A DNA stretch of 64,000 nt from the NCBI GenBank assembly GCA_964579145.1, contig CAZOGB010000013.1, forward strand, positions 154 through 64,153, read 5' to 3'. The DNA is from an uncultured bacterium (GTDB lineage Bacteria; Armatimonadota; HRBIN16). Every line of letters begins with the position of its first letter. Position 1 is the stretch's first letter. Made by a program: the position numbers and the translations under genes. The notes under the pieces were generated by a model. The model worked only from the letters and a program-made list of their open reading frames with translations, was not told the origin of the DNA and did no database searches. Below are positions 16,545 through 39,736 of the stretch, piece after piece.

Positions 16545-16572
16545 ACTGGGAGGGGAAACATCCCCTCCCAGT
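16545..16572. terminator. 12-bp perfect hairpin between convergent ORFs (probable terminator)
   Basis: ACTGGGAGGGGA-AACA-TCCCCTCCCAGT; no clear U-tract. Confidence 0.6.
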
Positions 16573-16576: not shown

Positions 16577-16753
16577 CTATCGCGGCGCGCCCTCTAGAGG
16601 CGGTATTTTGGGTGCAGGGTAGTGGCTTCGCAGACTTTTTTCATCGGTACGCGGAGCAGGTGCCATCCCTGACCGCATGAAAACTATGATAAACCCGACG
16701 ACAACTACTGCGATGGCCACTGCTACCCAGACAGGACTAATCTGCCTTCTCAT
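16577..16753 (-). CDS. Small single-TM Pro-rich protein (58 aa, not in ORF track), paralog of 33732-33935
   Basis: Translated by hand: MRRQISPVWVAVAIAVVVVGFIIVFMRSGMAPAPRTDEKSLRSHYPAPKIPPLEGAPR*. RBS AGGAGG overlaps the DUF1559 stop. Confidence 0.8.
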   Translation of the reverse strand: MRRQISPVWVAVAIAVVVVGFIIVFMRSGMAPAPRTDEKSLRSHYPAPKIPPLEGAPR

Positions 16754-16762
16754 GTGCCTCCT

Positions 16763-17473
16763 CTACAACCCCGGACAGGAGTTATCCGATGACCAGGGAT
16801 AGTAAATGTACAGGTATCTACCCGTGCAGGGATTAGTGGAACGGTCATTCCACCAGCCCTCCAGCACGTTGCGGGATACGTACTTGGCATGAGTATCAAT
16901 GAAAGTGACGTTCATGCCATCCGTATGACGGAAAGCCCAATGGCTTGGACCCCATGTTGCATTGTAGCCAAGCCCCTGATCATTATCGTCCGCGTCGTAG
17001 ACCTCGAAGAACCAGATACGCTCCGCAGGACGCTTGATCAGATCGAGCATGAACTCACTGACCGTGTTGTCCGATTTGATGTAGATTACGGCACCATACA
17101 CGTTAATGCCGTAACTCTTGTAGTACCACTCGGGAACCCAATCATATGGGTCGGTATTCCAAGGTTTCCTGGGCACTGCATGGCTTGGGCAGCGAAAGAT
17201 GTCTTCATTCTTCACATACGGCAGAATAAACCCAGACCATGTATTTGGAAAATGGGTAAACTGCCAGTATGTGTCCCAGATAGACATGCCATCATAGTCT
17301 TCTACATACATTCGCGCTCCCGTGCCAATCTGCTTCATGTTCGAGAGGCACGAGGTCTGCCTTGCTTTTTCCCTGGCTTGAGCGAAGACAGGGAACAGTA
17401 TCGCCGCCAGTATCGCGATAATCGCGATAACCACCAGCAGCTCAATCAGAGTGAACCCACGCTTGCTTTGCAT
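16763..17473 (-). CDS. Prepilin-type N-terminal cleavage/methylation protein, DUF1559 / H-X9-DG family
   Basis: G|[42 protein letters not shown]; C-terminal H-X9-DT variant ([14 protein letters not shown]). Confidence 0.92.
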
Positions 17474-17502
17474 TTCAGAACCCTCCTTCGGTTTTCAGGT
17501 TG

Positions 17503-18603
17503 TTATGTCGTTTTGGCTGGTGCACACGATTCGCGCAGAACCACCTGCGCTGGTACTTCCACCCGATGGGGCACAGGCTTGCCCTCCATCATGTCCATCA
17601 GCAAGCGCACACCCGTCTGCGCCATCTGTTCGAGGTCTACCCGCACCGACGAGAGAGGCGGCTGCATGGTGGTGCAGAAAGGCTCGTCGTCAAAGCCGAT
17701 GAGCGACAGGTCTTCTGGCACCTTCACGTTCATCTCTGTAATCGCGGGATAGGCGAACGCCAAAAGGATGTCCGACGCTCCCACGATCGCCGTCAGGGGT
17801 GGACGTACTTCCAGCAGACGCCTCAGTGCCTCTTGCACCGTCGGGCGGGGGCGGCCATGTTGCATCACCCAGTTCGCTTCGGGAGTGATGCCGGCTTCCT
17901 GCAAGGCGTCCATATAGCCCTCGAAACGCTGGGCGTAATGAGGCATATAGTGTCCGGTAAAGAAGCCGATGCGCCGATGTCCCAGGCGAATCAGCTCACG
18001 CACCGCCTGTCTGGTGCCGTCGCGATTTGCCTGCACCACGCGGGGAACAGGCACTTCTGGCTCCGCATCCACAATCACCACCGGATAGCCCCGTCTTTGC
18101 ATCCACAGCAAGCCCTCTTCATGCAAGGGACCGAACACCAGCGCGGCATCAAAGCGGTGATGACGCTCCCACTCCTGCAGGTAACTGGCGGATGCGCTCC
18201 GGTCGGGGAAGTGAAGCAGAAGGCTCCCCCACAGGTGCCGGGCGCACTCTTCCGCCGCCGCGTGCAACATGCGCATCTCGCCCACCGAGTACGAGGGGCG
18301 TGCGCCGGGTATCTGCCAGGTATACATGAGCGCAACCAGATGCTGTTGGACGGGCTGTTTGGGGCGACTGACCGCAATCACCGTGCCGCGGCGCGTCCGC
18401 TCCACCACCCCCCGTTGTGCCAGCAGGGTCAGGGCACGCTCGGCGGTCTGGTAGCTGATGCCGTAGTGGCGGGCAATCGTGCGGGCGGACCACAGCGGTG
18501 TGCCTGGCGTCAGCTGCCCGGCGTTTACCGCGGCTTCCACCTGCTCCACGATTTGCACGTAGAGCGGCGTGCGCAGGTGAGGGTTCAGGTGTAGCGGTAT
18601 CAT
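17503..18603 (-). CDS. GntR-family regulator with LacI-type sugar-binding effector domain
   Basis: PLYVQIVEQV..PGTPLWSARTIARHYGISYQT winged HTH; GHRRIGF, PEDLSLIGFDD, PPLSSVR. Start ATG 18603 is downstream of the promoter. Confidence 0.88.
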   Translation of the reverse strand: MIPLHLNPHLRTPLYVQIVEQVEAAVNAGQLTPGTPLWSARTIARHYGISYQTAERALTLLAQRGVVERTRRGTVIAVSRPKQPVQQHLVALMYTWQIPGARPSYSVGEMRMLHAAAEECARHLWGSLLLHFPDRSASASYLQEWERHHRFDAALVFGPLHEEGLLWMQRRGYPVVIVDAEPEVPVPRVVQANRDGTRQAVRELIRLGHRRIGFFTGHYMPHYAQRFEGYMDALQEAGITPEANWVMQHGRPRPTVQEALRRLLEVRPPLTAIVGASDILLAFAYPAITEMNVKVPEDLSLIGFDDEPFCTTMQPPLSSVRVDLEQMAQTGVRLLMDMMEGKPVPHRVEVPAQVVLRESCAPAKTT

Positions 18604-18628
18604 CGTTTCGGTCCTTGCTATGACTGCT

Positions 18629-18641
18629 ATGGTAATACCAT
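18629..18641. promoter_or_regulatory. GntR-type palindromic operator ATGGTA-A-TACCAT
   Basis: Perfect inverted repeat just downstream of the -10 of the gntR promoter; fits the GT-N-AC GntR box pattern. Confidence 0.65.
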
Positions 18642-18648
18642 TGCTTAC

Positions 18649-18677
18649 ACTATACAGTATCACGCTGTGTTTGTCAA
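18649..18677 (-). promoter_or_regulatory. sigma70 promoter TTGACA-N17-TATAGT for gntR
   Basis: Minus-strand TTGACA 18677-18672 and TATAGT 18654-18649. Confidence 0.75.
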
Positions 18678-18999
18678 GGGCTTTTGGCTCGCTGATGTAC
18701 GGGTTTTTTCGCTGGCTCGTCAATGCGTTTTGGATGACGATTTTAGAATGCAGAAAGACGATTTAGGCAATGACGAGCGTGGCCTGCCTGGCGGCTGTCG
18801 TCGGCTCAGGACGGCAATTGTGTTGATTTAACCGGTGTGTGCTATGATTTTTGAGGAGATTGAACGCGACGTGCTATGATAACGGTTCGCTCACGGTATC
18901 TGGCAGGACGACAGAGATGAGCCTCTCGTCCCTGATCGGTACAGAAACACCTCTCCGGAAAAGCTATGAAAAATTGTTGATGTTCCCAGCAAAAAGGTA

Positions 19000-19029
19000 T
19001 TGACAGGCTTGGCTGAGGGATAATATAAT
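19000..19029 (+). promoter_or_regulatory. Consensus sigma70 promoter TTGACA-N18-TATAAT for the DUF1559 gene
   Basis: TTGACA 19000-19005, TATAAT 19024-19029, preceded by an A-tract. Confidence 0.75.
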
Positions 19030-19085
19030 GAAAATACGCTTAAGCCCATAATCAGGCGCAAACTGCTCAAAGGAGGTGCACAGTC

Positions 19086-20021
19086 GTGAAGCGTGGTTTT
19101 ACGCTCATTGAGCTGCTGGTGGTCATCGCGATAATCGCGATACTGGCAGCCATCCTGTTCCCCGTGTTCGCGCAGGCACGGGAGAAAGCTCGCCAAGCTT
19201 CCTGCCTCAGCAACTTCAAGCAGGTGGGCACGGGCGTGATGATGTACGTGCAGGACTACGACGAGACCTTCCCCTACAACCGCTTCATCGGTCCCGGAGG
19301 GGCTACCTGGTCTACCTGGAAATACGCTATCCTGCCGTACGTCAAGAATCTGCAGGTGTATGAGTGCCCAAACGCTCGGGCGCAGATAGCGCGTATGCTC
19401 GGCGACAACGAGCGGGCATGGCGCGGATCCAAGATGGATGAGACGTGGGCGCACTGTCATCCCGAATCGCCGTGGGTAAGAAGTGACCCCTACTGCGACA
19501 TCCCACGCAGTCAGAACCTGTGGTTCCCGCGAGGATACACGGTAAACGGCGCGGTGTTTAACCTCTCGGCGTGGATTGGCGGGGCGAACAATCCGCGCAA
19601 GCTGGCTGACCTCGACGCTCCCGCCGAGACCATCTGGCTGCAGGATGGGCGCAACTACGAGCCGGACACCGGTCCCTGGGCAGTCGTGCGATGCTGGTGC
19701 GCGCCTCCGGGAGACCCGCTCGGCGGAGACGTGCCCGATTCCAGCCCGAACAACCCCTGTGGCTTCGTGCGGCAGTATGGATGGCTGATTAACCATCTGA
19801 AGGGCACGCACTTCATTTTCGCGGATGGACACGTGAAGTGGACGCGCGTGCACAGCGCCATCGCCAGCAACCTGTGGAAATGGGCTTGCTTCCAGCGGCC
19901 GGGCGAACGCACCTTCTGGGGAGACCCGCGCGACTTCCCCACTGACGGCAGCTGCCGACAGCCGGACCCGGATACCTGCCGCAGCGTTGCCAGTGCGCTG
20001 GCCGCTTACGAATACCGCTAA
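19086..20021 (+). CDS. Prepilin-type DUF1559 / H-X9-DG protein, Cys-rich (311 aa)
   Basis: G|[10 protein letters not shown]-terminus; [16 protein letters not shown]; 10 Cys; RBS AGGAGG. Confidence 0.92.
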
Positions 20022-20043
20022 TTCCTGAAATCATCAGCATTTG

Positions 20044-20074
20044 CGTCCGCAGAGGCTTCTCTGCGGGCGTTTTT
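20044..20074 (+). terminator. Rho-independent terminator
   Basis: CGTCCGCAGAG-GCTT-CTCTGCGGGCG followed by TTTTT. Confidence 0.75.
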
Positions 20075-22910
20075 ACTTCTGTCCACGCGCCCGTTTCTTG
20101 GCGTCGAGCAGGCGGCTGATCGGCTCACCCGATGAGGCAGGAGGGGCGACAGGCTGAGAGTCTGGTTTCTCATCTACCTCCGGCAGCCCAGCTGAGGGTT
20201 GGTTTGCAGGCTGAGGCGGTGTGTACTTTTCGCGCAGGCGCTGTTTACGCTGGAGCAGTCGCGAGGTTGCCTCAGCGGTTTGCCGGGCGGAAGGCATCCA
20301 CCGAAAGCGCACCGTCAGCCTCGCCCATGCCTCCTGCCATTCGGGAAGCGTTTCCGCCTGCCATAGAATGCGCCGCAGGGCGATGTCCACGGGCAGGAGA
20401 AACAACGCCACAAACAGCAGGGGAACGCTGGCTTCCGAGGGCACGCGCACCGGCACACGCTGTGAGCCGAAAATCTCCTGCGGTGGCGGCTGCTGTTTAC
20501 CACCGGTGAGCCGGGCAATCTGCTCCAGCAAGCCCGAATTGCTCTTCAGATCGCGGTATTCCGGCGAGTAGGCGATGGTATCCGTACCGATGCTGAGGCT
20601 GGTAGTGCCGTCCGAACGGCGATACTGTGTGGCGATAACGTAGGTTCCATAGCCCCGTGCATCAAAGGAGGCTTCGTAGCGGGTGGCGCCCGTCTGTGAT
20701 AGCACCAGCGGCACCACCTGACCGGTAGACGTGATGAGTTTGGCAGAGAGCGAGCGGTTACCATTGTCCTCTGACGCCCGCAGGAGATTCACCGCCACGT
20801 AGCCCTTCCCTCCCGAAATGGTAACCTGCGTGCGCACGTCTTCAGCGGGCAGACTGCGCAGCACCGTCCGCACCGCACGCGCAGCAAAGGCAGGAAACTC
20901 CCCCCATTTCACCCACTGCGCGCACCACTTCGCCTGACCGTCAGAAGTAAAAGCCATACTGCGCCCTACGCCATACTGCCATACCGCAAAGATGGGGTCT
21001 TCTTTGTGCGACAGCAAACCCAGCCGTGCGCCCGGCTTGGCGGTGGTAGTGTTGTAGCCCAGCAGGGGTGGTGAGCCTTCCCAGCCGATGCCCGTTACAA
21101 CCTCATCGCCGGTGTAGCGCACGTAGAAGGGTTCCTCAATGAACTGCGCCTTGCTGGCAATCAGTGCCTCTTTGGTGAAAATCTGCGGCAGGTTCGCCAT
21201 GCGGTCGGTGAAGTAGTAGCGCCCGCCCCCCGCCTTCGCCAGCTGCTGGAGGAAGGCTTCATCCTTGCCATGCCCGAAACAGACTACTGTCACGGTGATG
21301 CCTGCCCTGCGCAACTGCGCCGCGAGGGGAATGGCGCCCTCCTGGTGGTCACAGTCGTCGCCGTCGGCAAGGATAATCATGTGCCTCAACCGGGCACGGC
21401 TGACCTGCATCAGCTTTGCGCCTGCCTCCATACCCGGTCGCACGTAGATACCACCACCGCCCGGCTGGAAGGCCGCGATGGCACGCAGAATCTCTTCCTT
21501 CTTTTCGCCCACCCGCCACATCGGCACTACCGCCCGACAGTCAGAACCCGCAGCGATGACGCCCACCTCATCCTGCGCCGTCAGAAACCGTACCACCGTG
21601 GCGGCAGCGCGGTTTGCCAGCTCCATTTTGGTCGTTCCGCCCTCCGGCATCGCCATACTACCCGAATCGTCCACCACGAGCACAATGCCCACCGAAGGGT
21701 AGGAATGGTACTTGCGCACGTCCATCGACACGGGCAGAACCTCTTCCACGGGCGTCTCGAAGTAGCCTCCCGCGCCGAAGCTGTCCTCGCCACCAATCAT
21801 GCCCAGCCCCACGCCCAGCTCGCGCGTAGCGACCTGCAGGGCGCGCATGGCAGGGACACCCAGTTCATAGGCAGGCACGTTGTGCAGGATGACGGCATCA
21901 TAAGCCTGCAGCTGTGCGGGCTGGGTCTTCATCGCCTGCGGGCTGACCACGTCCACCCGGATACGCTGGGTTTGCGCCGCCTGCGCGAAGGGGGTAGACC
22001 TACCGTTGCCTGTTACGTACAGTACGCGCGGCATGCCCTGCACCCGCACATAGCCCGCGCCGCGGTTGTTCTGGGGATAGGTATCGGTGGATGCCAGCAG
22101 GGATACCTGATAGCGATACTGCCCGGCAGTGTCCTCGCGGTGCGACATCTGCACCAGATTCTTGCCCGGCTTGAGCTCTACTACCTGACTCTTCACCGGC
22201 TGACCGTCGCGCAGCAGCACCAGCTCCGCCGACTGCGGATGGGTGGACGCAATCCACACGCGCAGGTTGAACGGCTCCCCCTCTTTCACCAGCGTGGGGG
22301 TCTGAACCCGTTCTACCAGCGTTTCCGTTCGCACCTCGCGCGGGAAAGGAACCACATGCACCTTGACGCCTCGCCCCGCTGCCTGCAGTGCCTGGGCAAC
22401 CGCGTCACCCGCGTTGGCGTTGCCGTCAGAGAAGAGTACAATCTGTTTGCCCACGTTTTCAGGAAAGGCGGCGAGCGCTAGGCTGAGCCCCCGCCCGATA
22501 TCGGTCATTTCTGGGGAGTTGCTTGGGGGGATATGCGTCACTTCCAGCCGACTGCTCAGCGGAGCCACTATCTGCGGGTCGCTGCCGAAGACGATAATAC
22601 CCGCCATATCGTCCTCGCGCATCTGGCGCACGGCATCCCGGATGAAACGCAATGCGGATTCGCGCTGTTGCGGGTCCACACTGGCGCTTCCGTCCACCAC
22701 GAAGAACACCGCCTGCGCGGTGGCGGTTCGCACCCAGCGGATGCCAGCCAGTGCGAGAATAATCAGCGTCACCAGCAGGAGACGGAGCCACAATGACGCC
22801 TGCATCTGCCAACGGGGCAGTGCCGCCATACTGTGACGATGCACCCACCAGAAGATGGGCAGAATCGCCAGCAGTAACAGCATCCATGCACGCGCGAACT
22901 CCATAGGCAT
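20073..22910 (-). CDS. Membrane-anchored protein with two vWA domains and glutamine-amidotransferase-like (DUF1355-type) domains
   Basis: BatA-like N-terminal TM pair; MIDAS DGSAS and DDSGS motifs; LGMIGGEDSFGAGGY..TPVEEVLPV; PIFAVWQYGVGRS; C-terminal TM. Confidence 0.85.
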   Translation of the reverse strand: MPMEFARAWMLLLLAILPIFWWVHRHSMAALPRWQMQASLWLRLLLVTLIILALAGIRWVRTATAQAVFFVVDGSASVDPQQRESALRFIRDAVRQMREDDMAGIIVFGSDPQIVAPLSSRLEVTHIPPSNSPEMTDIGRGLSLALAAFPENVGKQIVLFSDGNANAGDAVAQALQAAGRGVKVHVVPFPREVRTETLVERVQTPTLVKEGEPFNLRVWIASTHPQSAELVLLRDGQPVKSQVVELKPGKNLVQMSHREDTAGQYRYQVSLLASTDTYPQNNRGAGYVRVQGMPRVLYVTGNGRSTPFAQAAQTQRIRVDVVSPQAMKTQPAQLQAYDAVILHNVPAYELGVPAMRALQVATRELGVGLGMIGGEDSFGAGGYFETPVEEVLPVSMDVRKYHSYPSVGIVLVVDDSGSMAMPEGGTTKMELANRAAATVVRFLTAQDEVGVIAAGSDCRAVVPMWRVGEKKEEILRAIAAFQPGGGGIYVRPGMEAGAKLMQVSRARLRHMIILADGDDCDHQEGAIPLAAQLRRAGITVTVVCFGHGKDEAFLQQLAKAGGGRYYFTDRMANLPQIFTKEALIASKAQFIEEPFYVRYTGDEVVTGIGWEGSPPLLGYNTTTAKPGARLGLLSHKEDPIFAVWQYGVGRSMAFTSDGQAKWCAQWVKWGEFPAFAARAVRTVLRSLPAEDVRTQVTISGGKGYVAVNLLRASEDNGNRSLSAKLITSTGQVVPLVLSQTGATRYEASFDARGYGTYVIATQYRRSDGTTSLSIGTDTIAYSPEYRDLKSNSGLLEQIARLTGGKQQPPPQEIFGSQRVPVRVPSEASVPLLFVALFLLPVDIALRRILWQAETLPEWQEAWARLTVRFRWMPSARQTAEATSRLLQRKQRLREKYTPPQPANQPSAGLPEVDEKPDSQPVAPPASSGEPISRLLDAKKRARGQK

Positions 22911-22916
22911 CTCACA

Positions 22917-28475: not shown

Positions 28476-28498
28476 GGGCGACAGCCCCGTCGCCCCTA
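28472..28498. repeat. GTAG-type REP-like palindrome spanning both stop codons of convergent genes
   Basis: GTAGGGGCGAC-AGCCCC-GTCGCCCCTA. Confidence 0.65.
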
Positions 28499-29851
28499 TA
28501 TCCGCGCCGCCTCGTGCAGTACCTCTATCATGGTGGGATGGGCAGGGAACAACGCCCCCAGCGTTTCTACCGTTGCACCCAGCGCCATCGCTGTTGCCAG
28601 CGGCGCCAGCACGTCCGCTGCGTGTGCCCCAACTGCCGCGCCTCCCAGAAGCCTGCCGGTAGACTCTTCCACCACCAGCTTGACGAACCCTTCGCTCTCG
28701 CCCAGCAATTGCGCCTTGAGGGTGTCGGCGTAGCGGGCGCGGAACACCTGAACCGCCATTCCCTGCTGGCGTGCCTGCACTTCGGTCATACCTACCTGCG
28801 CCACCTGCGGCTGGGTGTACACCGCTTCCACCACCAGGTCGGGGCGGAAGGGAGCAGTTGCCAGGCCAAGCGCGTGACGCACCGCCACTCGCGCCTGCGC
28901 CCAGCCACGGTTGAGGGTGAACGGCGGTCCGGCGGAGTCACCTGCGACGTAGATGTGCCCAACGGACGACTGCATGAACTCGTTTACCACGACGCCCTGG
29001 GAATCGGTCTGTATCCCTGCCGATTCGAGGTTCAGCCGCGCCAGGTCTGCCCGCCTGCCGATGGCGATAAAGGCATGTGAGCCTTCTATCACCGTGCCGT
29101 CCACCAGCCTGACCTGTACGCCCCCATCGGTAGCGGTCACGCTCTCCACCGGTGAGGAGAGCTGAATCTCTATACCCATCTGGCGGAAGGCGTGTTCGAG
29201 TTCTTTCGAAACCTCCTCATCGGCGCGAGGCAGAAGACGAGGCATATCGGTGATGACGGTCACTTCCGAACCCAGTGTGCGGAACAGGTAGGCGAACTCG
29301 CTCCCGGTGACGCCACCTCCGACCATCACCATCCGCTCGGGCAGGCTCTGCAGACTGCTGGCGAAGCGGGGTGCAAGGATGCGTTTGCCGTCCGGTTTCA
29401 TGCTGGGTGGAAAGATGGGCACTGAACCGGTGGCAATCAACGCAAGGTCGAAGGTTATCTCCTGCTCGTCTGCGCCCTCGCTCCGCACCTTCAGCGTGTG
29501 CGGGTCCGCAAAGGAAGCCACACCCGTTATCACCCTTACCCCCGCCTGTTGTAAAGCCTTATGTTGTTGCTCACCCCACTGGCGGGTGCGCTGGCGGATG
29601 CGCTCCATCAGGTGAGCGAGATTGGCAGGGGAAGCCTGAATGTCCACCCCGCGATGCTGTGCATAGCAGGTATCACGTAAAGTGTCCGCCGCGGTGAGCA
29701 GTACCTTGCTTGGAACGAGGCTGTCCCATGTGGTACGCCCGCCGATTTCGCCTTCGCTAATCAGGGTTACCTCAGCTCCCTCGTTAGCCGCTTCCAGCGC
29801 AGCGTACACACCCACCGCGCCGCCTCCGATGATGACAAACCGTTTGGGCAT
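28496..29851 (-). CDS. Lpd/LpdA-like FAD-dependent pyridine nucleotide-disulfide oxidoreductase family protein lacking the redox cysteines
   Basis: GGGAVG FAD fold; GGRTTWDSLVPSK in place of GGTCxxxGCIPSK; GGGVTG NAD(P) fold; C-terminal HPTMIE. Confidence 0.85.
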   Translation of the reverse strand: MPKRFVIIGGGAVGVYAALEAANEGAEVTLISEGEIGGRTTWDSLVPSKVLLTAADTLRDTCYAQHRGVDIQASPANLAHLMERIRQRTRQWGEQQHKALQQAGVRVITGVASFADPHTLKVRSEGADEQEITFDLALIATGSVPIFPPSMKPDGKRILAPRFASSLQSLPERMVMVGGGVTGSEFAYLFRTLGSEVTVITDMPRLLPRADEEVSKELEHAFRQMGIEIQLSSPVESVTATDGGVQVRLVDGTVIEGSHAFIAIGRRADLARLNLESAGIQTDSQGVVVNEFMQSSVGHIYVAGDSAGPPFTLNRGWAQARVAVRHALGLATAPFRPDLVVEAVYTQPQVAQVGMTEVQARQQGMAVQVFRARYADTLKAQLLGESEGFVKLVVEESTGRLLGGAAVGAHAADVLAPLATAMALGATVETLGALFPAHPTMIEVLHEAARI

Positions 29852-29954
29852 CTGCGTCACCTCCAGCGTTCTCACAGGGTTGGACTCCGCAACAGGAACA
29901 GGAGATTCTCCGATGTAGAGGCGTAAGTTTTCGCCCTACCCCTCTCACGCAAGA

Positions 29955-29993: not shown

Positions 29994-30950
29994 CTACAGC
30001 GGCTCGCCGCCCTTGTCCACGTTCTCCTTCGTGAAGATGCGCGTACCGAGAGTGATGTTCTTCGGCACCTGCTCGCCCTTCAGTATCTTCAGCGCGGTTT
30101 CTATCGCCTCTTTGCCGCCGGTGGGATACTCGAAGGTGGCGGTGAGGATGCCTTCCTTCACATAACGCACGCCCTCGTGGGGCAGGGCGTCGATGCCGAT
30201 GAACTTGATGGTCTTCTCGCGCCCCTTGCCTTCCTGTCGCGCGGCGAGGTACGCCCCGTGTGCGCTGGGGTCATTGTGCGCGTAAACGGCATCAATCTGA
30301 GGGAACCGAGCCAGGGCGGACTGCATCTCGCGCTGGGCAATGGGTTCCAGCCACTGGCAGTCGGCGTCAAAGATAATCTCAATCTGCGATCCGGCGATGC
30401 CTTCCATGAAGCCTTTGTGACGCTCCTGTCCGGGTGTGGAAGTCATCAGTCCCTTCAGCTCCACCACCTTACCCTTGCCGCCGAGCAGTTTCACCAGGTA
30501 CTTGCCCGCCTCACGCCCGATCTTCACGTTGTCCGCGCCGATGAAGCAGGTATACTGGTCGCCCTCTACCTTGCGGTCGAGCACGATAACGGGGATGCCC
30601 TTCTGGTATGCCTCGGCGACGGGCTGGGTGAGCGGGCGTGCCTCCTTTGGGCTGATGATGAGCAGGTCTACGCCCATCTGGATGAACTCGCGCACCTGCG
30701 CCTGCTGCACCTCCGTCTTGTTCTGCGCATCCTTGAAGATGACCTCGATCTCGTCAGCGTGCTGGCTCGCCGCCTGCCTGATGTCTTCGTTCATCTGCAC
30801 GCGCCAAGGCTCGCCCAGGTTGCACTGCGACATGCCGATAACCCACTTCTTTTTGCCCTGTGGTGCGGATGTCTGCTCGGTCTGCTTCTTCCCACATCCG
30901 GCACACACCACCAGCAGGGCGAATGCCACAGCGATAGCGATTTGTTTCAT
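29994..30950 (-). CDS. Sugar ABC transporter substrate-binding lipoprotein (RbsB-like)
   Basis: Start MKQIAIAVAF at ATG 30950 (RBS GGAGG), lipobox CAGC; IGMSQCNLGEPWR, IGADNVKIG, YAHND, IGIDAL. Confidence 0.88.
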   Translation of the reverse strand: MKQIAIAVAFALLVVCAGCGKKQTEQTSAPQGKKKWVIGMSQCNLGEPWRVQMNEDIRQAASQHADEIEVIFKDAQNKTEVQQAQVREFIQMGVDLLIISPKEARPLTQPVAEAYQKGIPVIVLDRKVEGDQYTCFIGADNVKIGREAGKYLVKLLGGKGKVVELKGLMTSTPGQERHKGFMEGIAGSQIEIIFDADCQWLEPIAQREMQSALARFPQIDAVYAHNDPSAHGAYLAARQEGKGREKTIKFIGIDALPHEGVRYVKEGILTATFEYPTGGKEAIETALKILKGEQVPKNITLGTRIFTKENVDKGGEPL

Positions 30951-31960
30951 CACGACCTCCCTCTCTTTTGCTGGATAAGCACCGCGATAGCGATGATGAT
31001 ACCCTGAATGACCATGCGCGGCGCCAGCTCCACCGCGTTCAAACTGAGGATTTTGTTGATGTATGCCATAATCAGCACGCCGATGAGGGTGAACATCATG
31101 CCCCCGCGTCCCCCCATCAGGCTGGTGCCGCCGATAACGACGGCAGCGATAGCGTCCAGTTCGTAGGTCATACCCGCTTCGGTGTCGCCCAGGTCCTGTC
31201 GACAGGCGTTCAGCACTCCCGCCAGCGCGGCGAACATCCCGCACAGCGCGTAGGTCAATACCTTCACCGCCCCCACACGAATGCCGCTGAGCCGCGCCGC
31301 CTCTTCGTTGCCGCCGATGGCATATAGCCACCTGCCATAGGAGGTATATCGCACCAGCGCCGCCATCACCAGAATGCACAGCAGAAAGAGAAGCGTGGAT
31401 GGCTGGATGCCGATGCCCGGCAGGGCGGTGGTCATCCACTGGAAGAAGGGCGGAGTGCCCGACTGCATCACGTACCACGGTTGTCCGCCGGGCTGAACCT
31501 TGATCCCTCCCGCTACCAGCTTCGCCGCGCCGCGTGCAGCGGTCATCATTGCCAGCGTTGCCACAAACGGTTGCATCCGAAAACGCGCGATCAGGCTTCC
31601 GTTAATGACCCCACACGTCAGCCCTGTTAACAGCACCACGCCCAGCGCGGGCGCGATGCTCCAGCCGTAGCCGATGGTCAGCAGGGAAAAAAGCACCGCG
31701 CTCAGCCCCAGCACCGACCCCACCGACAGGTCAATGCCACCCGTCAGGATGACTAAGGTCATGCCAGTCGCCAGCAGTCCGTACTCCGAGTATTCGTACA
31801 GGATGGCAAGCTGCGTCTGCCAGGACAGAAAAATGGGAAGCCCAGTATCCAGGGCACGCGGACTGAAGATGATGCCCAGCGTGAAAACCACTACGAAGGC
31901 AATCACGCCACGATAGTCGTTCAGCTTCTCCAGAAAACCGTGTAACCTGCTTGTCTCCAT
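30950..31960 (-). CDS. Sugar ABC transporter permease (RbsC-like)
   Basis: ILTGGIDLSVGS, PFVATLAM, YAIGGNEEAARLSGI, YELDAIAAVVIGGTSLMGGRG. Confidence 0.9.
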   Translation of the reverse strand: METSRLHGFLEKLNDYRGVIAFVVVFTLGIIFSPRALDTGLPIFLSWQTQLAILYEYSEYGLLATGMTLVILTGGIDLSVGSVLGLSAVLFSLLTIGYGWSIAPALGVVLLTGLTCGVINGSLIARFRMQPFVATLAMMTAARGAAKLVAGGIKVQPGGQPWYVMQSGTPPFFQWMTTALPGIGIQPSTLLFLLCILVMAALVRYTSYGRWLYAIGGNEEAARLSGIRVGAVKVLTYALCGMFAALAGVLNACRQDLGDTEAGMTYELDAIAAVVIGGTSLMGGRGGMMFTLIGVLIMAYINKILSLNAVELAPRMVIQGIIIAIAVLIQQKRGRS

Positions 31961-32083
31961 GCGTTGAGGGTTCCTCTGATCCTCACTGTGCACCCTGCGA
32001 TTTCCTGTTCGCAAGCGGGCGAAGATTCTCCTTCACAGGTGGAAGGGTAGGGAAAAGGACACGGATAGCCAATTATCTTATCA

Positions 32084-32237
32084 GGAGCTACGCAGTGGAG
32101 TAGGTTAGCCATAAAGGGCTGCTGAAGGTTGCTGCGAAGCGTCGGGAGTGGGTGTCGGAGTGAAGCTTGAGACCCTTCGCTGGCGCTCAGGGTGATCAAA
32201 GCGGCAGGGTGATAGCGTTTCGCGACTGTGTAGCTCC
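32084..32237. mobile_element. Putative 154-bp MITE-like element with 13-bp terminal inverted repeats
   Basis: GGAGCTACGCAGT ... ACTGTGTAGCTCC (1 mismatch); non-coding interior contains REP-like GAGACCCTTCGCTGGCGCTCAGGGTGA (32169-32195); no target-site duplication seen. Confidence 0.4.
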
Positions 32238-32274
32238 GGTTCTTTGTGACACTTTCGTCTTTGGGGAGGAAAAC

Positions 32275-33687
32275 ATGCGATTCGGCAAACCGCTTCTAAC
32301 CTTTGTGCTGGCCGTGCTGGTATCCACGAGCGTTTTCGCTCAGATAAAGGTAAGCGGCACCTGGCGACTGCGAATCGAGGACTGGCAGTGGTTCAACGTG
32401 CCCGGCTTTGATACCGATTACACCTATGCGCATTCCCTCCTGCGTCTTGCGCTGACGGGCGAAACGGGTACAGCTCGGTGGAGAGCTGAACTGGCGCAGG
32501 CGGGGCTGTTCGACGTGCCCGATGCGGTGGCCCCACCGCCTGCAGGTCAGCTGGGGCTGGGTGGAACGCTCAAAGCGGTGAACGGCAACAACAAAGCCAG
32601 CCTGTTCGTGAAGCAGCTGAATGCAGAGTGGTCGCTGAACTGGGGCAGTCTGGAGGTTGGGCGTATGGAGTTCGGTGATGGGTGCGAGGTAGCGGTCAAA
32701 GACGCTGGATTGAACTGGCTACATGCCAATCGTATCAGCAACCGTCTGATTGGTCCTTTCGGCTTCTCTCCTGTCACCCGCTCGTTTGATGGGGTGCTGT
32801 TGCAGACGGGCGACAACTCCGGGCGATGGCTTTTCTTCGCCGCCTATCCCACGCAGGGCGCGTTTGACCTGAACGGCAACCCCACGTTGACCAATGTGAA
32901 CCAGCTGTATCTTGCCTACGCCCGTGCCCAGGAGACGAAGAATACGAGCTTTGACTGGCGTCTGTTCTGGGGCTGGTATCGCGACAGCCGCAACGTGCTC
33001 AAGGTAGACAACCGCCTGCTGGCGGCGCGGCAGGCAGACAGCGAGGACATCCGCGTGTGGACGCTGGGCGGACACTGGGCGCAAGTGTGGAACAGTGCCG
33101 CGGGACGAACCGACCTGCTGTTGTGGGGCGCTCTGCAGGGCGGTGAGTGGGGACAGATCAGCCACTCGGCATACGCGCTGGCGGCGGAAGCGGGCTTCCA
33201 GTTCCCGACGCTGTGGAAACCGTGGGTGCGTGCCGGCTATTACGTTGGCTCCGGCGACAAGGATAACACCGACGACCGCCACGAGACCTTCATCGCTGGC
33301 ATGAACACGCCTCGCCTGTATGCGATGACACCCTTCTACAACACCATGAACCTGGAGGACGCCTTCGTGCAGGTGATGTTCACACCGCATCCGCGCTGGT
33401 CGGCGAGGGTGGACTATCACCGCCTGCGCCTGAACCGCTCTTCCGACCTGTGGTATGCGGGAGGCGGTCCTTTCGACAACACCAGCTACGGTGTGGTGGG
33501 GCGTCCTTCGGGAGGCAATCGCGACCTGGCGCATCTGTTTGACATCTCGCTGAACTACCGCGCCAGCGATAGCCTGCAGATTTCGGTCTACAAGAGCTGG
33601 ATTCAGGGCGGCAGCGTCCTGCGCTCGGTGTATCCGGCTGGCGAGGACGGAGGGTTCTTCTTCGTCGAGGCGAACTATCGCTTCTAA
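32275..33687 (+). CDS. Outer-membrane beta-barrel, alginate export (AlgE)-like family
   Basis: Signal peptide MRFGKPLLTFVLAVLVSTSVFA; alternating beta-strand pattern; RSFDG; SGDKDNTDDRHETF; C-terminal NYRF. RBS GGAGG before ATG 32275. Confidence 0.72.
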   Translation: MRFGKPLLTFVLAVLVSTSVFAQIKVSGTWRLRIEDWQWFNVPGFDTDYTYAHSLLRLALTGETGTARWRAELAQAGLFDVPDAVAPPPAGQLGLGGTLKAVNGNNKASLFVKQLNAEWSLNWGSLEVGRMEFGDGCEVAVKDAGLNWLHANRISNRLIGPFGFSPVTRSFDGVLLQTGDNSGRWLFFAAYPTQGAFDLNGNPTLTNVNQLYLAYARAQETKNTSFDWRLFWGWYRDSRNVLKVDNRLLAARQADSEDIRVWTLGGHWAQVWNSAAGRTDLLLWGALQGGEWGQISHSAYALAAEAGFQFPTLWKPWVRAGYYVGSGDKDNTDDRHETFIAGMNTPRLYAMTPFYNTMNLEDAFVQVMFTPHPRWSARVDYHRLRLNRSSDLWYAGGGPFDNTSYGVVGRPSGGNRDLAHLFDISLNYRASDSLQISVYKSWIQGGSVLRSVYPAGEDGGFFFVEANYRF

Positions 33688-33697: not shown

Positions 33698-33725
33698 GCA
33701 GGGGCAATCTGCCGATTGCCCCTGC
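33698..33725. terminator. 12-bp perfect hairpin between convergent genes (REP-like)
   Basis: GCAGGGGCAATC-TGCC-GATTGCCCCTGC. Confidence 0.65.
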
Positions 33726-33935: not shown

Positions 33936-33950
33936 GGAACCTCACCCCAA

Positions 33951-34703: not shown

Positions 34704-34727
34704 TGTTGAACCCTCCTTCTGTGCGTT

Positions 34728-35771: not shown

Positions 35772-35782
35772 GGGTTCTTTTC

Positions 35783-35800
35783 TGCTAAAGTACTTTAGCA
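35783..35800. promoter_or_regulatory. LacI-type operator O1: TGCTAAAGTACTTTAGCA (perfect 18-bp palindrome)
   Basis: Lies between the -10 and the start of lacI. Confidence 0.75.
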
Positions 35801-35802
35801 AT

Positions 35803-35838: not shown

Positions 35839-35854
35839 GCTAAAATATTTTAGC
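35839..35854. promoter_or_regulatory. LacI-type operator O2: GCTAAAATATTTTAGC (perfect 16-bp palindrome)
   Basis: Same GCTAAA/TTTAGC arms as O1; overlaps an extended -10 (TG-C-TAAAAT, 35838-35846) facing the GH30 gene. Confidence 0.72.
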
Positions 35855-35990: not shown

Positions 35991-37451
35991 ATGTCTGCTG
36001 TAACTGTAGAGGTAGACACGGGACGGCGCTACCAGGTGATAGAAAACTTTGGGGCGTCGGGCGCATGGAGCATAGACCCCATCGGTAAGGAGTGGTCGGA
36101 GGCGAACAAGAACGCGCTTGCTGACCTGCTCTTCTCGCGCGAAAAGGGCATTGGATTATCGCTGTGGCGGTTCAACATCGGCGCGGGAGGAGCGCTCACC
36201 GACCAGCTATGGGACCCCTGGCGGGGTGCAGAGGTGTTCAAAGCCAGCGAGAACGCCGATTACGACTGGAGCAAACATGCGGGACAGCAATGGTTCCTGC
36301 GCGCCGCCAGAAAACGCGGGGTAGAGCGGTTCCTCGCCTGCGTGTACAGCCCACCCATCTGGATGACCAAGAACGGACATGCCCACTGCGACAAACAGTC
36401 CGGCTCCACGAATCTCAAGCCTGGCTATGAACAGCCTTTTGCCCGTTTCCTCACCGATGTGCTGGAGCATTTCGCCAGAGAGGGACTGCCTTTTCACTAC
36501 ATCAGCCCGGTCAACGAGCCGAACTGGGAGTGGGAAGGCGGTCAGGAAGGCTGCCGATATGACAACGACGACCTGAAGCGAGTGATTCACGCCCTCTATG
36601 CCGAGGTTCGGTCTCGCAGGCTGTCCACCCAAATCGTGGTGCCGGAGGCAGGCGAGCTGGTCTCCCTGCTGGACGACGAGTTCTATCGTCGCTGGGCGGG
36701 CATTGATGACCCGAAAGCTGCCCACACCCACGGCAACCGCTCCAGAGGCTGGGGGATGTATGGGCAGTATATCCGGGAACTGCTGGGCGATGCCGAACTG
36801 CGGCGCAGGATAGGCAACCGTATCTGCGCACATGCCTACTGGACTGATTCCAGCCTGCATCTTCTGCGCGACCTGCGTCGCACGGTGCAGGAAAACATCG
36901 CGCGTTACGCGCCGGGCGCACAGTACTGGCAAACGGAGTACTGCGTGATGGAGCACCGACGTGACCTGGGCATGGATACCGCTCTCCGTGTGGCTCGGGT
37001 GATCCACTACGACCTGACCGCGGGCAACGCCTCAGCATGGCACTGGTGGCTGGCGGTTTCGCCCTATGACTACAAAGACGGGCTGATATACACCGACTAC
37101 CGGCGCACCGGTCAGCAAAACATCCTGCCCTCCAAAACGCTGTGGGTGCTGGGGAACTTCAGCCGCTATCTGCGTCCGGGCGCCATCCGCGTACACGCCG
37201 AACCCTCCGAGGTAGAGGAAGACCTGCTGGTTTCCGCTTATATCCAGTCCACCAGTCCGCGCTTTGTGTGCGTGGTGGTCAATCGTGAGTCGCAGGAGGT
37301 TACCCTCAAACTGAAAGTGGACCGCAAGGTAGATACGCTCCTTCCGGTAGTGACCTCCGCCGAACACGACCTGGCCCCGCAGCCGGCGGTCAGAGCCTCC
37401 ACAGGGACAGTGATCCCCCCGCGCAGTGTGGTGACGTTAATTCACCGGTGA
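35991..37451 (+). CDS. Glycoside hydrolase family 30 (Glyco_hydr_30_2 type), no signal peptide
   Basis: NFGASGAW, GLSLWRFNIGAG, SPPIWMTKNG, catalytic NEP and TEY, ASAWHWW, FSRYLRPG. Confidence 0.88.
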   Translation: MSAVTVEVDTGRRYQVIENFGASGAWSIDPIGKEWSEANKNALADLLFSREKGIGLSLWRFNIGAGGALTDQLWDPWRGAEVFKASENADYDWSKHAGQQWFLRAARKRGVERFLACVYSPPIWMTKNGHAHCDKQSGSTNLKPGYEQPFARFLTDVLEHFAREGLPFHYISPVNEPNWEWEGGQEGCRYDNDDLKRVIHALYAEVRSRRLSTQIVVPEAGELVSLLDDEFYRRWAGIDDPKAAHTHGNRSRGWGMYGQYIRELLGDAELRRRIGNRICAHAYWTDSSLHLLRDLRRTVQENIARYAPGAQYWQTEYCVMEHRRDLGMDTALRVARVIHYDLTAGNASAWHWWLAVSPYDYKDGLIYTDYRRTGQQNILPSKTLWVLGNFSRYLRPGAIRVHAEPSEVEEDLLVSAYIQSTSPRFVCVVVNRESQEVTLKLKVDRKVDTLLPVVTSAEHDLAPQPAVRASTGTVIPPRSVVTLIHR

Positions 37452-37521
37452 AAAACGCAGGAAATATGCGCCAGCGCAGGTAAAATTAGGCTGTATCCGG
37501 CAAGGGAGGCTGGTAACAAGG

Positions 37522-38763
37522 ATGTCCAGGCGTAAGTCCAAAATCATCGGTACAGCGCAACCTGCGGAGGGGACCATTCGCCTGCTGGAGCCGGCGCGTG
37601 GGGTTGCAGACCCTGATGACCCGCATGTTCAACAGGTGGCGTCGCAGTTGCTGACGCTCTCGCAGGAGGAGCAGATAGCGGCGGCACAGTGGATGGGTTC
37701 ACAGCCCGATTACGTTGCGCTGGTGGCTTGTCTGCTCCATAGGATAGGGGTCAGTGGCGCGGTGCGTCGCGTGCTGAAGCGGGCGATGTTCGAACTGGAT
37801 CGACAGGGCGTACAGGTCGCACAGGTGTACTCAGTAGTGAGTTCAGACCGTGAAGACACTCGCAGGTCCGAGCAGTGGGTGACCGAAGAGGTGTTTGCGA
37901 GTGTGTTCTACGGATTCAGCAGCGACGTGCATCTGCGATTCTTCATGCGCCACCCCGTAGAGGGACGGGCGGCATTCCTCCTCGAGGTCACCGGCGGCGG
38001 CTACCTTGGGCTGGCACAGTTTGTGGATAGACAAGTCGATGAATTGCACCACGAGTGCCTGACCTACACGTATAATGCGCTGCTGCCGGGGCGCGAATCG
38101 GAGATCGAAGGCAACATAGGCATGTTTTTTACGCCAGTACCTGTAGACTGGGCAGTACAGGTGGTCAACCGGGCACGTCAACGGAACCTGCAGGAGCACC
38201 AGGAATTACATCCCCATGCCGCCTTCTACTGGGGTCGCCTGCCTGCGCCGCCAGATCCTCCAGTGCCCATGCCTGTCGATTCCATCCCGGACGCAGAGAC
38301 GGACTGGGCACTGTCCCCTTTGATGGGCAACCAGCCGGAGCGCGAAGCACCCCAGCCGCTCCTGCTGATGCTGACGGGATACATACCTCCATCAGAAGTG
38401 CTTGCTGAAGAGATGACGCGCCAGATGAAGCAGATGCAGAGCAGACTCATCCTGACCGAGCAGGCAGAGCGAGACCGGCTTGCTCAGGTGATGGACAGAG
38501 TCGCCCAGCAACTTCTGCCTGAAAAGTTTCGAGGATGGCTGCAAGAAATACTTCCCGTCTACGGGAGCGTTGCTTTGCTGGCTGGCGACCGTCAAACCGC
38601 GGTATGGTGCAAGGCACTCTGGCGCGAGCTGACCGAAAGGCGTGATAAACCCTTCTGGGATACTCGTACAGCATCGCTGTTGATCGCTATGTCATTGTCG
38701 GTATTGCTGTCCGAGATAGAAACGGCTGAGGGAGGTTTCGCTAATGACACGCCACTTGCATAG
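37522..38763 (+). CDS. Hypothetical protein (413 aa)
   Basis: RBS GGAGG; long ORF overlapping the next gene; no recognised motif. Confidence 0.75.
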   Translation: MSRRKSKIIGTAQPAEGTIRLLEPARGVADPDDPHVQQVASQLLTLSQEEQIAAAQWMGSQPDYVALVACLLHRIGVSGAVRRVLKRAMFELDRQGVQVAQVYSVVSSDREDTRRSEQWVTEEVFASVFYGFSSDVHLRFFMRHPVEGRAAFLLEVTGGGYLGLAQFVDRQVDELHHECLTYTYNALLPGRESEIEGNIGMFFTPVPVDWAVQVVNRARQRNLQEHQELHPHAAFYWGRLPAPPDPPVPMPVDSIPDAETDWALSPLMGNQPEREAPQPLLLMLTGYIPPSEVLAEEMTRQMKQMQSRLILTEQAERDRLAQVMDRVAQQLLPEKFRGWLQEILPVYGSVALLAGDRQTAVWCKALWRELTERRDKPFWDTRTASLLIAMSLSVLLSEIETAEGGFANDTPLA

Positions 38764-39736
38764 TAGAGGTTTCGCGTGGAGTCTGTCTCGCTGTTTGGCG
38801 ACCCTTTTACTGGTCGCTGTTGCTACCGGGTGTGCCCGTACCCAGAACGCACAGCCCTCGCGCAGCATTCCCTACGAGCAGGTTTATGCTTACGACCGCG
38901 ACCTGCCCCTCAACGCTGAAGTTACCGAGCAACAACGCGGCACGGGCTATGTCATCTACCGCGTGCAATACAGCAGCGTGCACGATAAGCGTGTGCCCGC
39001 GTGGTGGTGCGTGCCGACGACCGGAACGCCTCCCTATCCCTGTGTCATCATCATGCACGGCTACGGCGGTGACAAGAACGGTCTGCAGATGCTGGCGCCT
39101 GCCTTTGCCATGCGCGGTATTGCCACGCTGGCGATTGATGCCGAATATCACGGCGACCGCAAACAGCCGGGCAACGATATCCTCAGCACATACATCTACC
39201 GCAACCGCGAAGCCCTCGTTCAGACGGTGATTGACCTGCGCCGCGCCGTGGACTTCCTGCAAAGCAGGCAGGAGATAGACGGCAAGCGCATCAGCTATAT
39301 CGGCTTGAGCATGGGAGGCATTCTGGGCGGGATACTGGCAGGCGTGGACGAGCGCATCCAGGCGCCCATCCTGATTGTAGCGGGCGGCGACTGGGGCTAC
39401 CTGTTCAGCACCAGCCAACACCCAACCGCCGTGCAGCTGCGTGAGAAGAACCCTGAACTGTTCAAGAGCACACAGAAGATGAACGAGGTGATGGGCGTGG
39501 TTGACCCGGTGAACTGGGTGGCACACATCTCGCCGCGCCCCCTGCTGATGATTAACGGCAAGGATGACCAGATTGTGCCCAAAGAGTGCACCGAGCGCCT
39601 CTTCGCCGCAGCAAAAGAGCCGAAGGAGATTGTGTGGCTGGAAGGCGGACATATGCCCCAGCCCGATGTCGTCCTGCGCAAGGTAGACGAGTGGCTGACG
39701 AAGCACCTGTTGAACGGACAGACGGCAGGGAAGTAG
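38744..39736 (+). CDS. Alpha/beta-hydrolase lipoprotein (acetyl xylan esterase / dienelactone hydrolase-like)
   Basis: Lipobox VATGC; HGYGG; GLSMG nucleophile elbow; GKDDQIVP; GGH. Confidence 0.82.
   Translation: MTRHLHSRGFAWSLSRCLATLLLVAVATGCARTQNAQPSRSIPYEQVYAYDRDLPLNAEVTEQQRGTGYVIYRVQYSSVHDKRVPAWWCVPTTGTPPYPCVIIMHGYGGDKNGLQMLAPAFAMRGIATLAIDAEYHGDRKQPGNDILSTYIYRNREALVQTVIDLRRAVDFLQSRQEIDGKRISYIGLSMGGILGGILAGVDERIQAPILIVAGGDWGYLFSTSQHPTAVQLREKNPELFKSTQKMNEVMGVVDPVNWVAHISPRPLLMINGKDDQIVPKECTERLFAAAKEPKEIVWLEGGHMPQPDVVLRKVDEWLTKHLLNGQTAGK

Follow-up and report, generated by a model that had tools for sequence, protein, structure and literature searches.

Recurrent modules of a sugar-type repressor, a DUF1559 prepilin-like protein and a small membrane protein in Armatimonadota: a candidate glycan-capture system

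The pul secreton of Klebsiella is regulated by maltose through MalT and exports the lipoprotein pullulanase. In the bindosome of Sulfolobus, sugar-acquisition proteins, each encoded with its own utilisation genes, bear a pilin-type signal and rely on a shared type IV-like assembly system (Bas; PMC3047682). The DUF1559 proteins, compared here with these systems, form one of the largest paralog families of the Planctomycetota-Verrucomicrobiota-Chlamydiota (PVC) bacteria and the Armatimonadota, with 68 members in Planctopirus and 91 in Tuwongella (PMC10632474, PMC8567305). Proteins that combine the N_methyl and SBP_bac_10 domains are expressed and membrane-associated in Tuwongella (PMC8567305), and dextran binds pili-like fibres in DUF1559-rich Planctomycetes (PMC5394234). 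Literature searches on DUF1559 and H-X9-DG returned no functional study, the family being reported by numbers and membrane fractionation only. This work concerns a stretch of 64,000 nt (the window; contig CAZOGB010000013.1, 59% G+C) from a bacterium of the phylum Armatimonadota, described as soil/hot-spring. Three proteins encoded in the window contain the prepilin motif FTLIELLVV, and two of the three belong to three-gene units of identical layout, in which a regulator, a DUF1559 protein and a small transmembrane (TM) protein follow one another.

The reading favoured here, which is given a probability of roughly 0.4, is that a sugar-derepressed operon encodes a specialised pilin-like subunit, with its membrane partner, for use in a shared machine, and that the head of the subunit binds the cognate carbohydrate. 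Through the modules, single DUF1559 paralogs are tied to a defined repressor, to predicted operators and to enzymes, and a small membrane protein not described before comes to light as their partner. This makes the role of a very large family without assigned function open to direct test. Neither the regulator/DUF1559/small TM module nor its small TM family was found described in the literature searched, and the same holds for a link between DUF1559 and LacI/GntR regulators across phyla.

The three-gene modules and their orthologs

Both units lie on the minus strand (Table 1) and share a single layout. A sigma-70-type promoter and an operator precede the regulator gene, which is followed by the DUF1559 gene with a strong ribosome-binding site (RBS), the small TM gene and a hairpin. 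In module 1 the regulator and DUF1559 genes are 29 nt apart, with the RBS AAGGAGG, and the small TM gene follows after a further 9 nt with the RBS GGAGG; the DUF1559 gene of module 2 has the same RBS as module 1 (AAGGAGGGTTC). The arms of the hairpin that ends operon 1 are GGGAGGGGA and TCCCCTCCC. For the module 1 regulator the list of open reading frames gives a TTG start at 18723, and the ATG at 18603 is the start that agrees with the promoter. The initial annotation of this DNA had named the TTGACA-N17-TATAGT promoter, a GntR regulator with a sugar-binding domain, a single transcript for the trio, a second and divergent DUF1559 gene with a consensus promoter, and a recurrence of the architecture at 33732-35854 with a LacI regulator. 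Each of these elements was located, and the tight gene spacing, strong RBSs and terminal hairpins of both modules are those of compact transcription units.

The window proteins have their best relatives in Armatimonadota, among metagenome-assembled genomes (MAGs) of the Chthonomonadales/Chthonomonadaceae and in Fimbriimonas, and the trio recurs in such genomes. Orthologs of copy 1 stand in the order GntR-type regulator, DUF1559, small TM in a Chthonomonadaceae MAG (loci L001-L003) and in an Armatimonadaceae MAG (L005). In Fimbriimonas (L004) the DUF1559 and small TM genes are accompanied by a divergent AraC regulator. A syntenic ortholog of module 1 (L093) retains the neighbouring Peripla_BP_2, FecCD and FapA genes as well, and three orthologs of module 2 (L086, L087 and L088) have the same divergent genes for a GH30 glycoside hydrolase, a protein of no known family and an AXE1-like esterase. 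The order LacI, DUF1559, small TM is found in L092 and, with a GH30 gene following on the same strand, in L091; in L089 and L090 the order is permuted to GntR-type regulator, small TM, DUF1559. Since the partnership is kept despite changes of gene order and different regulator families, there is good evidence at the level of gene neighbourhoods that the three genes act together.

Common to the small TM proteins are the pattern M-[KR]-[KR]-E-V-S-P, a single TM helix and a tail rich in Pro, Lys and Gly. A profile search retrieved 33 such proteins, all unannotated, and all those with a named source come from Armatimonadota. A DUF1559 gene adjoins the small TM gene in each of the 11 contexts examined, and a regulator of the periplasmic-binding-protein (PBP) or AraC type is present in 10 of them. 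The family was also sought in a census of 80 DUF1559 loci from GTDB species genomes (Armatimonadota, Lentisphaerota, Verrucomicrobiota, Planctomycetota and others). There a narrow hidden Markov model run against the open reading frames found close orthologs only, and a scan based on hydrophobicity added L011 and perhaps L025. Because both scans found so few, the small TM partner is not general to DUF1559 genes. The gene after DUF1559 in L040, L048, L061, L068 and L069 (Planctomycetota/other PVC) often encodes a small protein of ~120-240 aa with a lipoprotein signal, not a Pro-rich small TM protein. An all-against-all BLAST of the PVC loci gave no common downstream partner family, only these recurring small lipoproteins.

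The third DUF1559 gene of the window (copy 3) is a solo gene, divergent from module 1, with no small TM gene after it and a terminator at 20043-20070. Directly downstream on the opposite strand (20073-25019) lie genes for a 945-aa protein with two VWA domains and a GATase1-like domain (BatA/DUF58-like) and then a 700-aa O-antigen-ligase (Wzy_C) protein with TPR repeats.

Regulation and the link to carbohydrate use

The regulator of module 2 is a LacI-family protein with matches to PF00356 (helix-turn-helix, HTH; E 3.5e-16) and PF13377 (Peripla_BP; E 7e-23). Two perfect 16-bp palindromes, where shuffled sequences give 0.26 expected, flank its promoter and are predicted to be LacI operators, with the sequence TGCTAAAGTAYTTTAGCA. 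The window, L086/L087 and L088 all keep the succession TGCTAAAATAyTTTAGCA, 7 nt, TTGACA, 17 nt, TAtAAT, 3 nt, TGCTAAAGTAyTTTAGCA. The promoter and both operators are thus conserved in three diverged genomes while the remaining intergenic sequence has diverged, which amounts to a phylogenetic footprint. As far as can be read from the sequence, this is the layout of a classic autoregulated LacI repressor that also controls a divergent operon. Between O1 and the GH30 start, at 35881-35899, lies a perfect G/C-rich hairpin (GGGGGGAAA/TTTCCCCCC). In style it recalls the terminal hairpin of operon 1. The corresponding intergenic regions of L086 and L088, which are shorter, do not contain it, and it could act as an attenuator or represent a small palindromic element of a repeated kind.

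The module 1 regulator joins a GntR winged HTH (PF00392, E 2e-11) to a LacI-type PBP domain (PF13377, E 8e-36). Among structures in the PDB, its N-terminus matches GntR/HutC-type HTH domains such as that of YvoA, and its C-terminus matches LacI, PurR and AraR (3tb6, E 8e-12). The domain make-up, a LacI-type PBP domain in both proteins and, in module 1, its fusion to a GntR HTH as in AraR, supports the assignment of both regulators to sugar-type families. The palindromic operator proposed earlier for this promoter fared less evenly. The palindrome is present (ATGGTAaTACCAT, 18629-18641), within a wider inverted repeat GCTATGG-N5-CCATTGC. This 13-bp sequence was rejected as a regulon motif or conserved operator, since no further close copy turns up in the window (11 matches at ≤3 mismatches, 6.7 expected) and the orthologous promoters do not conserve it. 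The conserved element is instead a half-site, CATAGC/GCTATG, repeated in both inverted and direct orientation shortly after the -10 element, and CATAGC sits at the same place in the promoters of the window, L001 and L005. L001 has the same promoter layout, TTGACA-N17-TATAAT, and shares with the window the sequence CATAGCAGTCATAGC directly after the -10; L005 has TTGACA and an ATAAT -10-like element, with ATAGCATaATGCTAT and CATAGCA. The proposed self-repression of the modules fits the positions of the operators and their conservation, repression and inducers being the inferred part.

GCTATG occurs 24 times in the window, and 5 of the 24 copies fall within the 350 bp that separate the module 1 regulator from the divergent copy 3. 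Because the half-sites cluster between the two genes, the solo copy 3 may be co-regulated by the module 1 regulator and so belong to its regulon.

The carbohydrate connection is most concrete at module 2, whose divergent operon probably belongs to the same LacI regulon. The nearest solved relatives of its GH30 are the Bacteroides GH30-like protein 3clw, a xylobiohydrolase and GH30 xylanases. Given a xylanase-like enzyme and an acetyl-xylan-esterase-like lipoprotein, the inducer of module 2 probably derives from xylan or a xylo-oligosaccharide. Since neither the GH30 nor the 413-aa protein has a signal peptide, the substrate must be imported, and these cytoplasmic proteins favour an uptake-side role for module 2. 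A 411-420-aa protein always stands between the GH30 and the esterase (window 37522-38763; L086 272-1507; L088 242-1504), and it evolves fast, at 43-48% identity. An Alginate_exp outer-membrane barrel adjoins module 2 in the window and in L088, and a sugar ATP-binding-cassette (ABC) permease with its binding protein is likewise found in L088, not in L086/L087. No ATPase gene stands beside the permease and binding protein (29994-32014); the next gene, 28496-29875, encodes a pyridine-nucleotide disulfide oxidoreductase.

The census extends the link to other phyla. The Pfam family most often encoded directly upstream of DUF1559 is Peripla_BP_3 (9 of 91 cases, with a GntR HTH in 5 and a LacI HTH in 3); next come DUF1559 itself and AraC (3). 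Compared with the other genes of the same loci, sugar regulators are enriched at this position with a Fisher odds ratio of ~10-14 (p 2e-5 to 2e-6), and the association is seen in Lentisphaerota/Victivallales and in Armatimonadota. At the ten loci with a regulator followed by DUF1559, the next gene encodes GH78, GH27, LamG, a weak CBM4_9, a weak beta-helix, PGI or an unknown protein, and downstream neighbours over all loci include DUF4838, heparinase, a polysaccharide lyase and ThuA. Upstream enrichment and downstream carbohydrate genes together show that the placement of DUF1559 genes with respect to sugar regulators and carbohydrate-active enzymes (CAZymes) is not random; a random placement would have counted against the initial annotation.

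Elsewhere in the window, the uncharacterised family DUF6785/DUF6784 has two large members, both membrane proteins, encoded at 9780-11801 (minus strand) and 42996-44981 (plus strand), with E values of 1e-152 and 2e-160. Around the second is a cluster of sugar-metabolism genes, which encode a xylose-isomerase-like TIM barrel (42119-42916), a GFO/IDH/MocA oxidoreductase (44997-46241), ThuA (46388-47149) and a GH106-like rhamnosidase (47171-50191), and this membrane protein may represent a novel sugar transporter family.

Table 1. Positions in the window of the two modules, the solo DUF1559 gene and neighbouring features (a slash marks the cleavage position of the leader)
Feature	Position	Strand	Remarks
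Operon 1 closing hairpin	16545..16572	.	perfect 12-bp stem, 4-nt loop
Module 1 small single-pass membrane protein, 58 aa	16577..16753	-	MRRQISP, one TM helix, Pro-rich tail
DUF1559 copy 1, prepilin-like, 236 aa	16763..17473	-	N_methyl and PF07596; leader MQSKRG/FTLIE; variant C-terminal motif H-x9-DT
Module 1 regulator, AraR-type, 366 aa	17503..18603	-	GntR winged HTH and LacI-type Peripla_BP_3/1 domain
Module 1 operator region	18617..18644	.	between -10 and start codon; two GCTATG half-sites (18617, 18626), palindrome, wider repeat
Module 1 promoter, TTGACA-N17-TATAGT	18677->18649	-	11/12 consensus match
Three further GCTATG half-sites	18841..18968	+	18841, 18873, 18963; same orientation, upstream of copy 3 promoter
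Copy 3 promoter, TTGACA-N18-TATAAT	19000..19029	+	perfect consensus, 12/12
DUF1559 copy 3, prepilin-like, 311 aa	19086..20021	+	GTG start; leader MKRG/FTLIE; 9 Cys in head
Sugar ABC permease (32014-30950) and lipoprotein solute-binding protein	29994..32014	-	Peripla_BP_4 (binding protein)
Outer-membrane beta-barrel	32167..33687	+	Alginate_exp family; signal peptide from internal Met
Operon 2 closing hairpin	33698..33725	.	perfect 12-bp stem, 4-nt loop; between convergent small TM and porin genes
Module 2 small single-pass membrane protein, 67 aa	33732..33935	-	MKREVSP, one TM helix, Pro-rich tail
DUF1559 copy 2, 250 aa	33951..34703	-	Ala at -1 (…DDARA/F); H-X9-DG motif; 8.9% Trp in head
Module 2 LacI-family regulator, 347 aa	34728..35771	-	from ATG 35771
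LacI operator O2 (predicted), GCTAAAGTACTTTAGC	35784..35799	.	perfect 16-bp palindrome, immediately downstream of -10
Module 2 promoter, TTGACA-N17-TATAAT	35831->35803	-	12/12 match
LacI operator O1 (predicted), GCTAAAATATTTTAGC	35839..35854	.	perfect 16-bp palindrome; abuts -35, faces divergent GH30 operon
Divergent operon GH30/unknown/AXE1-like esterase	35991..39736	+	probably in same LacI regulon
GH30	35991-37451	+	without signal peptide
Conserved 413-aa protein	37522-38763	+	no Pfam match, no signal peptide
AXE1-like esterase lipoprotein	38744-39736	+	

The pilin-like proteins and the case for glycan capture

All three DUF1559 copies are recognised by the pilin profiles N_methyl (34-38 bits, cutoff 21.2) and TIGR02532 (29-37 bits, cutoff 16.3), and show the features of class III signals: a short basic leader, F+1, E+5, a hydrophobic α-1N segment of ~20 residues and P+22. 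The class III (prepilin) signals that had been ascribed to DUF1559 proteins are therefore present here. Copies 1 and 3 have the Gly(-1)/Phe(+1) junction (MQSKRG/F and MKRG/F), whereas copy 2 has Ala at -1, because of which its processing may differ from that of the other two. For PF07596 (DUF1559, SBP_bac_10), whose cutoff is 23.3 bits, the copies score 38.4, 53.2 and 40.7, with matches that span only positions 2-65 or 2-102 of the 268 in the profile; as so little of the profile is covered, the heads diverge from the planctomycete core. For TIGR04294 (H-X9-DG, cutoff 19 bits), copy 2 scores 30.5 and copy 3 scores 18.2, and copy 1 gives no match, having an H-x9-DT in register with the family motif.

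The likeness to known pilins is concentrated in the N-terminal helix. Compared with solved structures, the family profile matches Geobacter PilA-N (E 1e-15), Thermus PilA, Myxococcus PilA and GspG (6e-5) over residues 4-66 only, that is, over α-1. The 32 residues from F+1 are identical in the three paralogs, and 24 of these 32 are invariant or nearly so in 110 relatives. Gene conversion was ruled out as the source of the identical N-termini, for in this part the genes differ at 16-18 positions per 96 nt, all of the differences being synonymous. Saturated synonymous change under identical residues argues for purifying selection on the N-terminus of α-1. To judge from the residues kept, this constraint exceeds the need of a membrane anchor or a peptidase site, and it fits packing in a common filament core or assembly platform.

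An α-1 that is invariant and resembles GspG and PilA implies a shared machine, and that machine need not serve uptake. The DUF1559 paralog and its small partner could instead form a cargo-dedicated pseudopilin unit, adapting a shared type II secretion system (T2SS) to the export or display of sugar-induced enzymes, with the pul secreton of Klebsiella as a parallel. In line with this, the module 2 regulon includes the exported AXE1-like lipoprotein, and in Lentisphaerota the gene that follows a regulator and DUF1559 usually encodes a large protein with a signal peptide (LamG, CBM-like, beta-helix). Planctomycete DUF1559 genes are often flanked by genes for type I/II signal-peptide proteins (PMC8567305), a T2SS has been detected in Armatimonadetes (PMC6668835), and secretin or T2SS-F genes neighbour a few DUF1559 loci. 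However, several operon or regulon partners have no signal peptide (the GH30 of the window; GH78 in L010 and L001), and no candidate cargo is encoded with module 1. With TIGR01710, the GspG equivalog, the scores are only 33.6-36.4 bits against a cutoff of 88.85, mostly through α-1 (residues 1-58; copy 2 aligns over 12-108), and the NCBIfam equivalogs GspG, PilA and ComGC all fall far below their cutoffs. Known T2SSs, moreover, have one fixed set of pseudopilins and need no cargo-specific subunit of the major type. Dedicated export is held to be somewhat unlikely, yet it is the main rival to the favoured reading and a serious one.

Beyond α-1, the confident AlphaFold model of the DUF1559 protein (pLDDT 81-82, pTM 0.81) has a 50-residue helix and an alpha/beta head with a beta-sheet. 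A head-focused model starting at residue 30, built lest the helix mask the head, gave no Foldseek match in the PDB, and no PBP or solute-binding-protein domain was matched in the heads by Pfam. Residues invariant throughout the family are D59, Y60, D61, H183, N188, D193, H195 and K197, together with the Cys pair C42/C95. Such a set would suit a periplasmic protein that does not polymerise, in which the class III signal is an inner-membrane anchor only, the small TM protein a co-anchor, and the head, through the His, Asp and Asn of its H-X9-DG motif, a metal-dependent enzyme, a chaperone or a factor in the processing of imported oligosaccharides. The lack of a structural match to known pilin heads, the fractionation of the Tuwongella proteins with membranes (PMC8567305) and the absence of adjacent machinery genes agree with it. 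Nevertheless, 32 invariant α-1 residues, with E+5 and P+22, under saturated synonymous change go far beyond what an anchor needs, and the heads of paralogs are highly divergent outside the motif although those of orthologs are nearly identical. A purely periplasmic role is accordingly held to be distinctly unlikely.

The heads contain 5.7-8.9% Trp and 14-20% aromatic residues, which makes the three copies the most Trp-rich proteins of the window (median 2.25%). Aromatic-rich heads are typical of sugar-binding surfaces, without being diagnostic of them. Among orthologs of module 2, identity is 90-95% in the DUF1559 head, 78-84% in GH30, 80-83% in LacI, 75-81% in the small TM protein and 43-48% in the 413-aa protein. 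Since DUF1559 is the best conserved protein of its locus, its head has a constrained and specific function and is no variable surface antigen. Aromatic heads and regulation by sugars would also suit adhesion to insoluble polymers or surfaces, or envelope remodelling on a sugar signal, with no role in uptake; the model would be Ruminococcus albus, in which pilin-like proteins are implicated in fibre adherence (PMC4300822). Set against this are the linked enzymes, which are partly cytoplasmic, and the nearby porin and ABC transporter, which point to the uptake of soluble oligosaccharides. Such a role, which overlaps the favoured reading and is hard to tell apart from it in silico, is rated more unlikely still than the periplasmic one.

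Under the favoured reading of sugar-induced glycan capture, a LacI- or AraR-type repressor without effector would occupy the palindromic operators that overlap its own promoter and, in module 2, also the operator that faces the divergent GH30/unknown/esterase operon. Binding of sugar to the PBP domain would release the repressor. The class III signal would then insert the DUF1559 protein into the inner membrane, a prepilin peptidase encoded elsewhere would cut it, and the invariant 32-residue N-terminus of α-1 would dock into a common filament core or assembly platform, either a type IV filament or a T2SS-like one. The paralog-specific, disulfide-containing and aromatic-rich head would bind its cognate carbohydrate, be it a glycan or an oligosaccharide, either within the periplasm or on the cell surface and concentrate the substrate for uptake and hydrolysis. 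In this it would work much as cellulose-binding type IV pilins or the sugar-binding proteins of the archaeal bindosome do; further precedents are pilin-like fibre adhesion in Ruminococcus (PMC4300822) and the dextran-binding fibres of planctomycetes (PMC5394234). Anchoring or assembly would depend on the small TM protein, an obligate partner whose Pro-rich tail would lie in the periplasm.

Several observations weigh against this reading, in which the capture of glycans by the DUF1559 head is itself inferred. LacI-type domains can also bind ligands other than sugars. The full-length model has no Foldseek match in the PDB (E < 1), be it lectin, carbohydrate-binding module (CBM), solute-binding protein or pilin head, and the invariant polar residues of the head point to a function common to all paralogs, e.g. 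a metal site or a partner contact. The Ala of copy 2 occupies a cleavage position at which Gly is near-universal, and it is kept in the orthologs (window 33951-34703; L086 4233-4985; L088 4241-4987). No CAZyme is found near module 1 in the window or near its syntenic ortholog L093, both of which adjoin an iron/cobalamin-type ABC transporter in its place. Of the DUF1559 genes sampled at the 80 loci, the majority are accompanied neither by a regulator nor by a small TM gene. A check for prepilin peptidase and type IV pilus or T2SS machinery covered the larger predicted genes of the window up to ~59.9 kb, and neither Peptidase_A24 nor T2SS-E/F nor a secretin was among them. The initial annotation had regarded each module as a sugar-inducible, pilin-like binding unit; the conserved module, its sugar-type regulators and its non-random placement uphold that view, and the machinery scan and the surroundings of module 1 do not.

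A bolder version of the same reading holds that DUF1559 paralogs are interchangeable, sugar-induced heads on one shared type IV filament, which with their small Pro-rich partners would make up a programmable device for glycan capture and import. This is rather doubtful. If true, it would add a third general strategy of polysaccharide acquisition in diderms, beside Sus/TonB and classical binding-protein ABC uptake, and would explain both the DUF1559 expansions in Planctomycetota, Verrucomicrobiota, Lentisphaerota and Armatimonadota and the dextran-binding planctomycete fibres. Glycan-uptake annotation would change in several environmentally abundant phyla if the capture model is correct.

Comparison with known systems

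In the initial annotation, the modules were given the part that SusC/SusD pairs play in Bacteroidota. What remains of this is a loose functional analogy: in both cases CAZymes and a sugar-responsive regulator of their own accompany many paralogous, substrate-linked envelope components. However, no TonB-dependent transporter and no SusD-like lipoprotein came up when the neighbours of the modules were scanned with Pfam, and fold and envelope mechanism are unrelated. Regulation differs as well, with cytoplasmic LacI/GntR repressors here and hybrid two-component or ECF systems there. The regulator of module 1 finds its counterpart in AraR of Bacillus subtilis, which likewise combines a GntR HTH with a LacI/GalR-type effector domain, and the position of the operator fits the autoregulated layout. 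Unlike in AraR, the half-site is CATAGC and the targets are genes for pilin-like and small TM proteins, not for arabinose catabolism.

The pul secreton resembles the modules in that pseudopilin genes are co-induced by sugar with a glycan-degrading lipoprotein enzyme. There, the whole secreton with its single pseudopilin set is under control; here, each module contributes one pilin-like gene and one small TM gene, and the linked enzymes are partly cytoplasmic. Type IV pilins and GspG/PulG share with DUF1559 the class III signal, the N_methyl domain, the α-1 profile match and a long α-1 helix followed by a beta-sheet head. Neither sequence nor Foldseek comparison, however, relates the DUF1559 head (~190 aa) to any solved pilin or pseudopilin, and the genes, with many paralogs per genome, are scattered outside any machinery operon and individually regulated by sugar-type repressors.

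The subunits of the Sulfolobus bindosome are ABC solute-binding proteins, whereas the DUF1559 head is small and has no PBP match, and the ABC system near module 2 has a lipoprotein binding protein of its own. The bindosome also belongs to a single-membrane archaeon, and the present organism appears to be a diderm bacterium. Its plan is nonetheless the one proposed here: pilin-type signals on proteins of sugar acquisition, each accompanied by its own utilisation genes, and a shared type IV-like system for their assembly.

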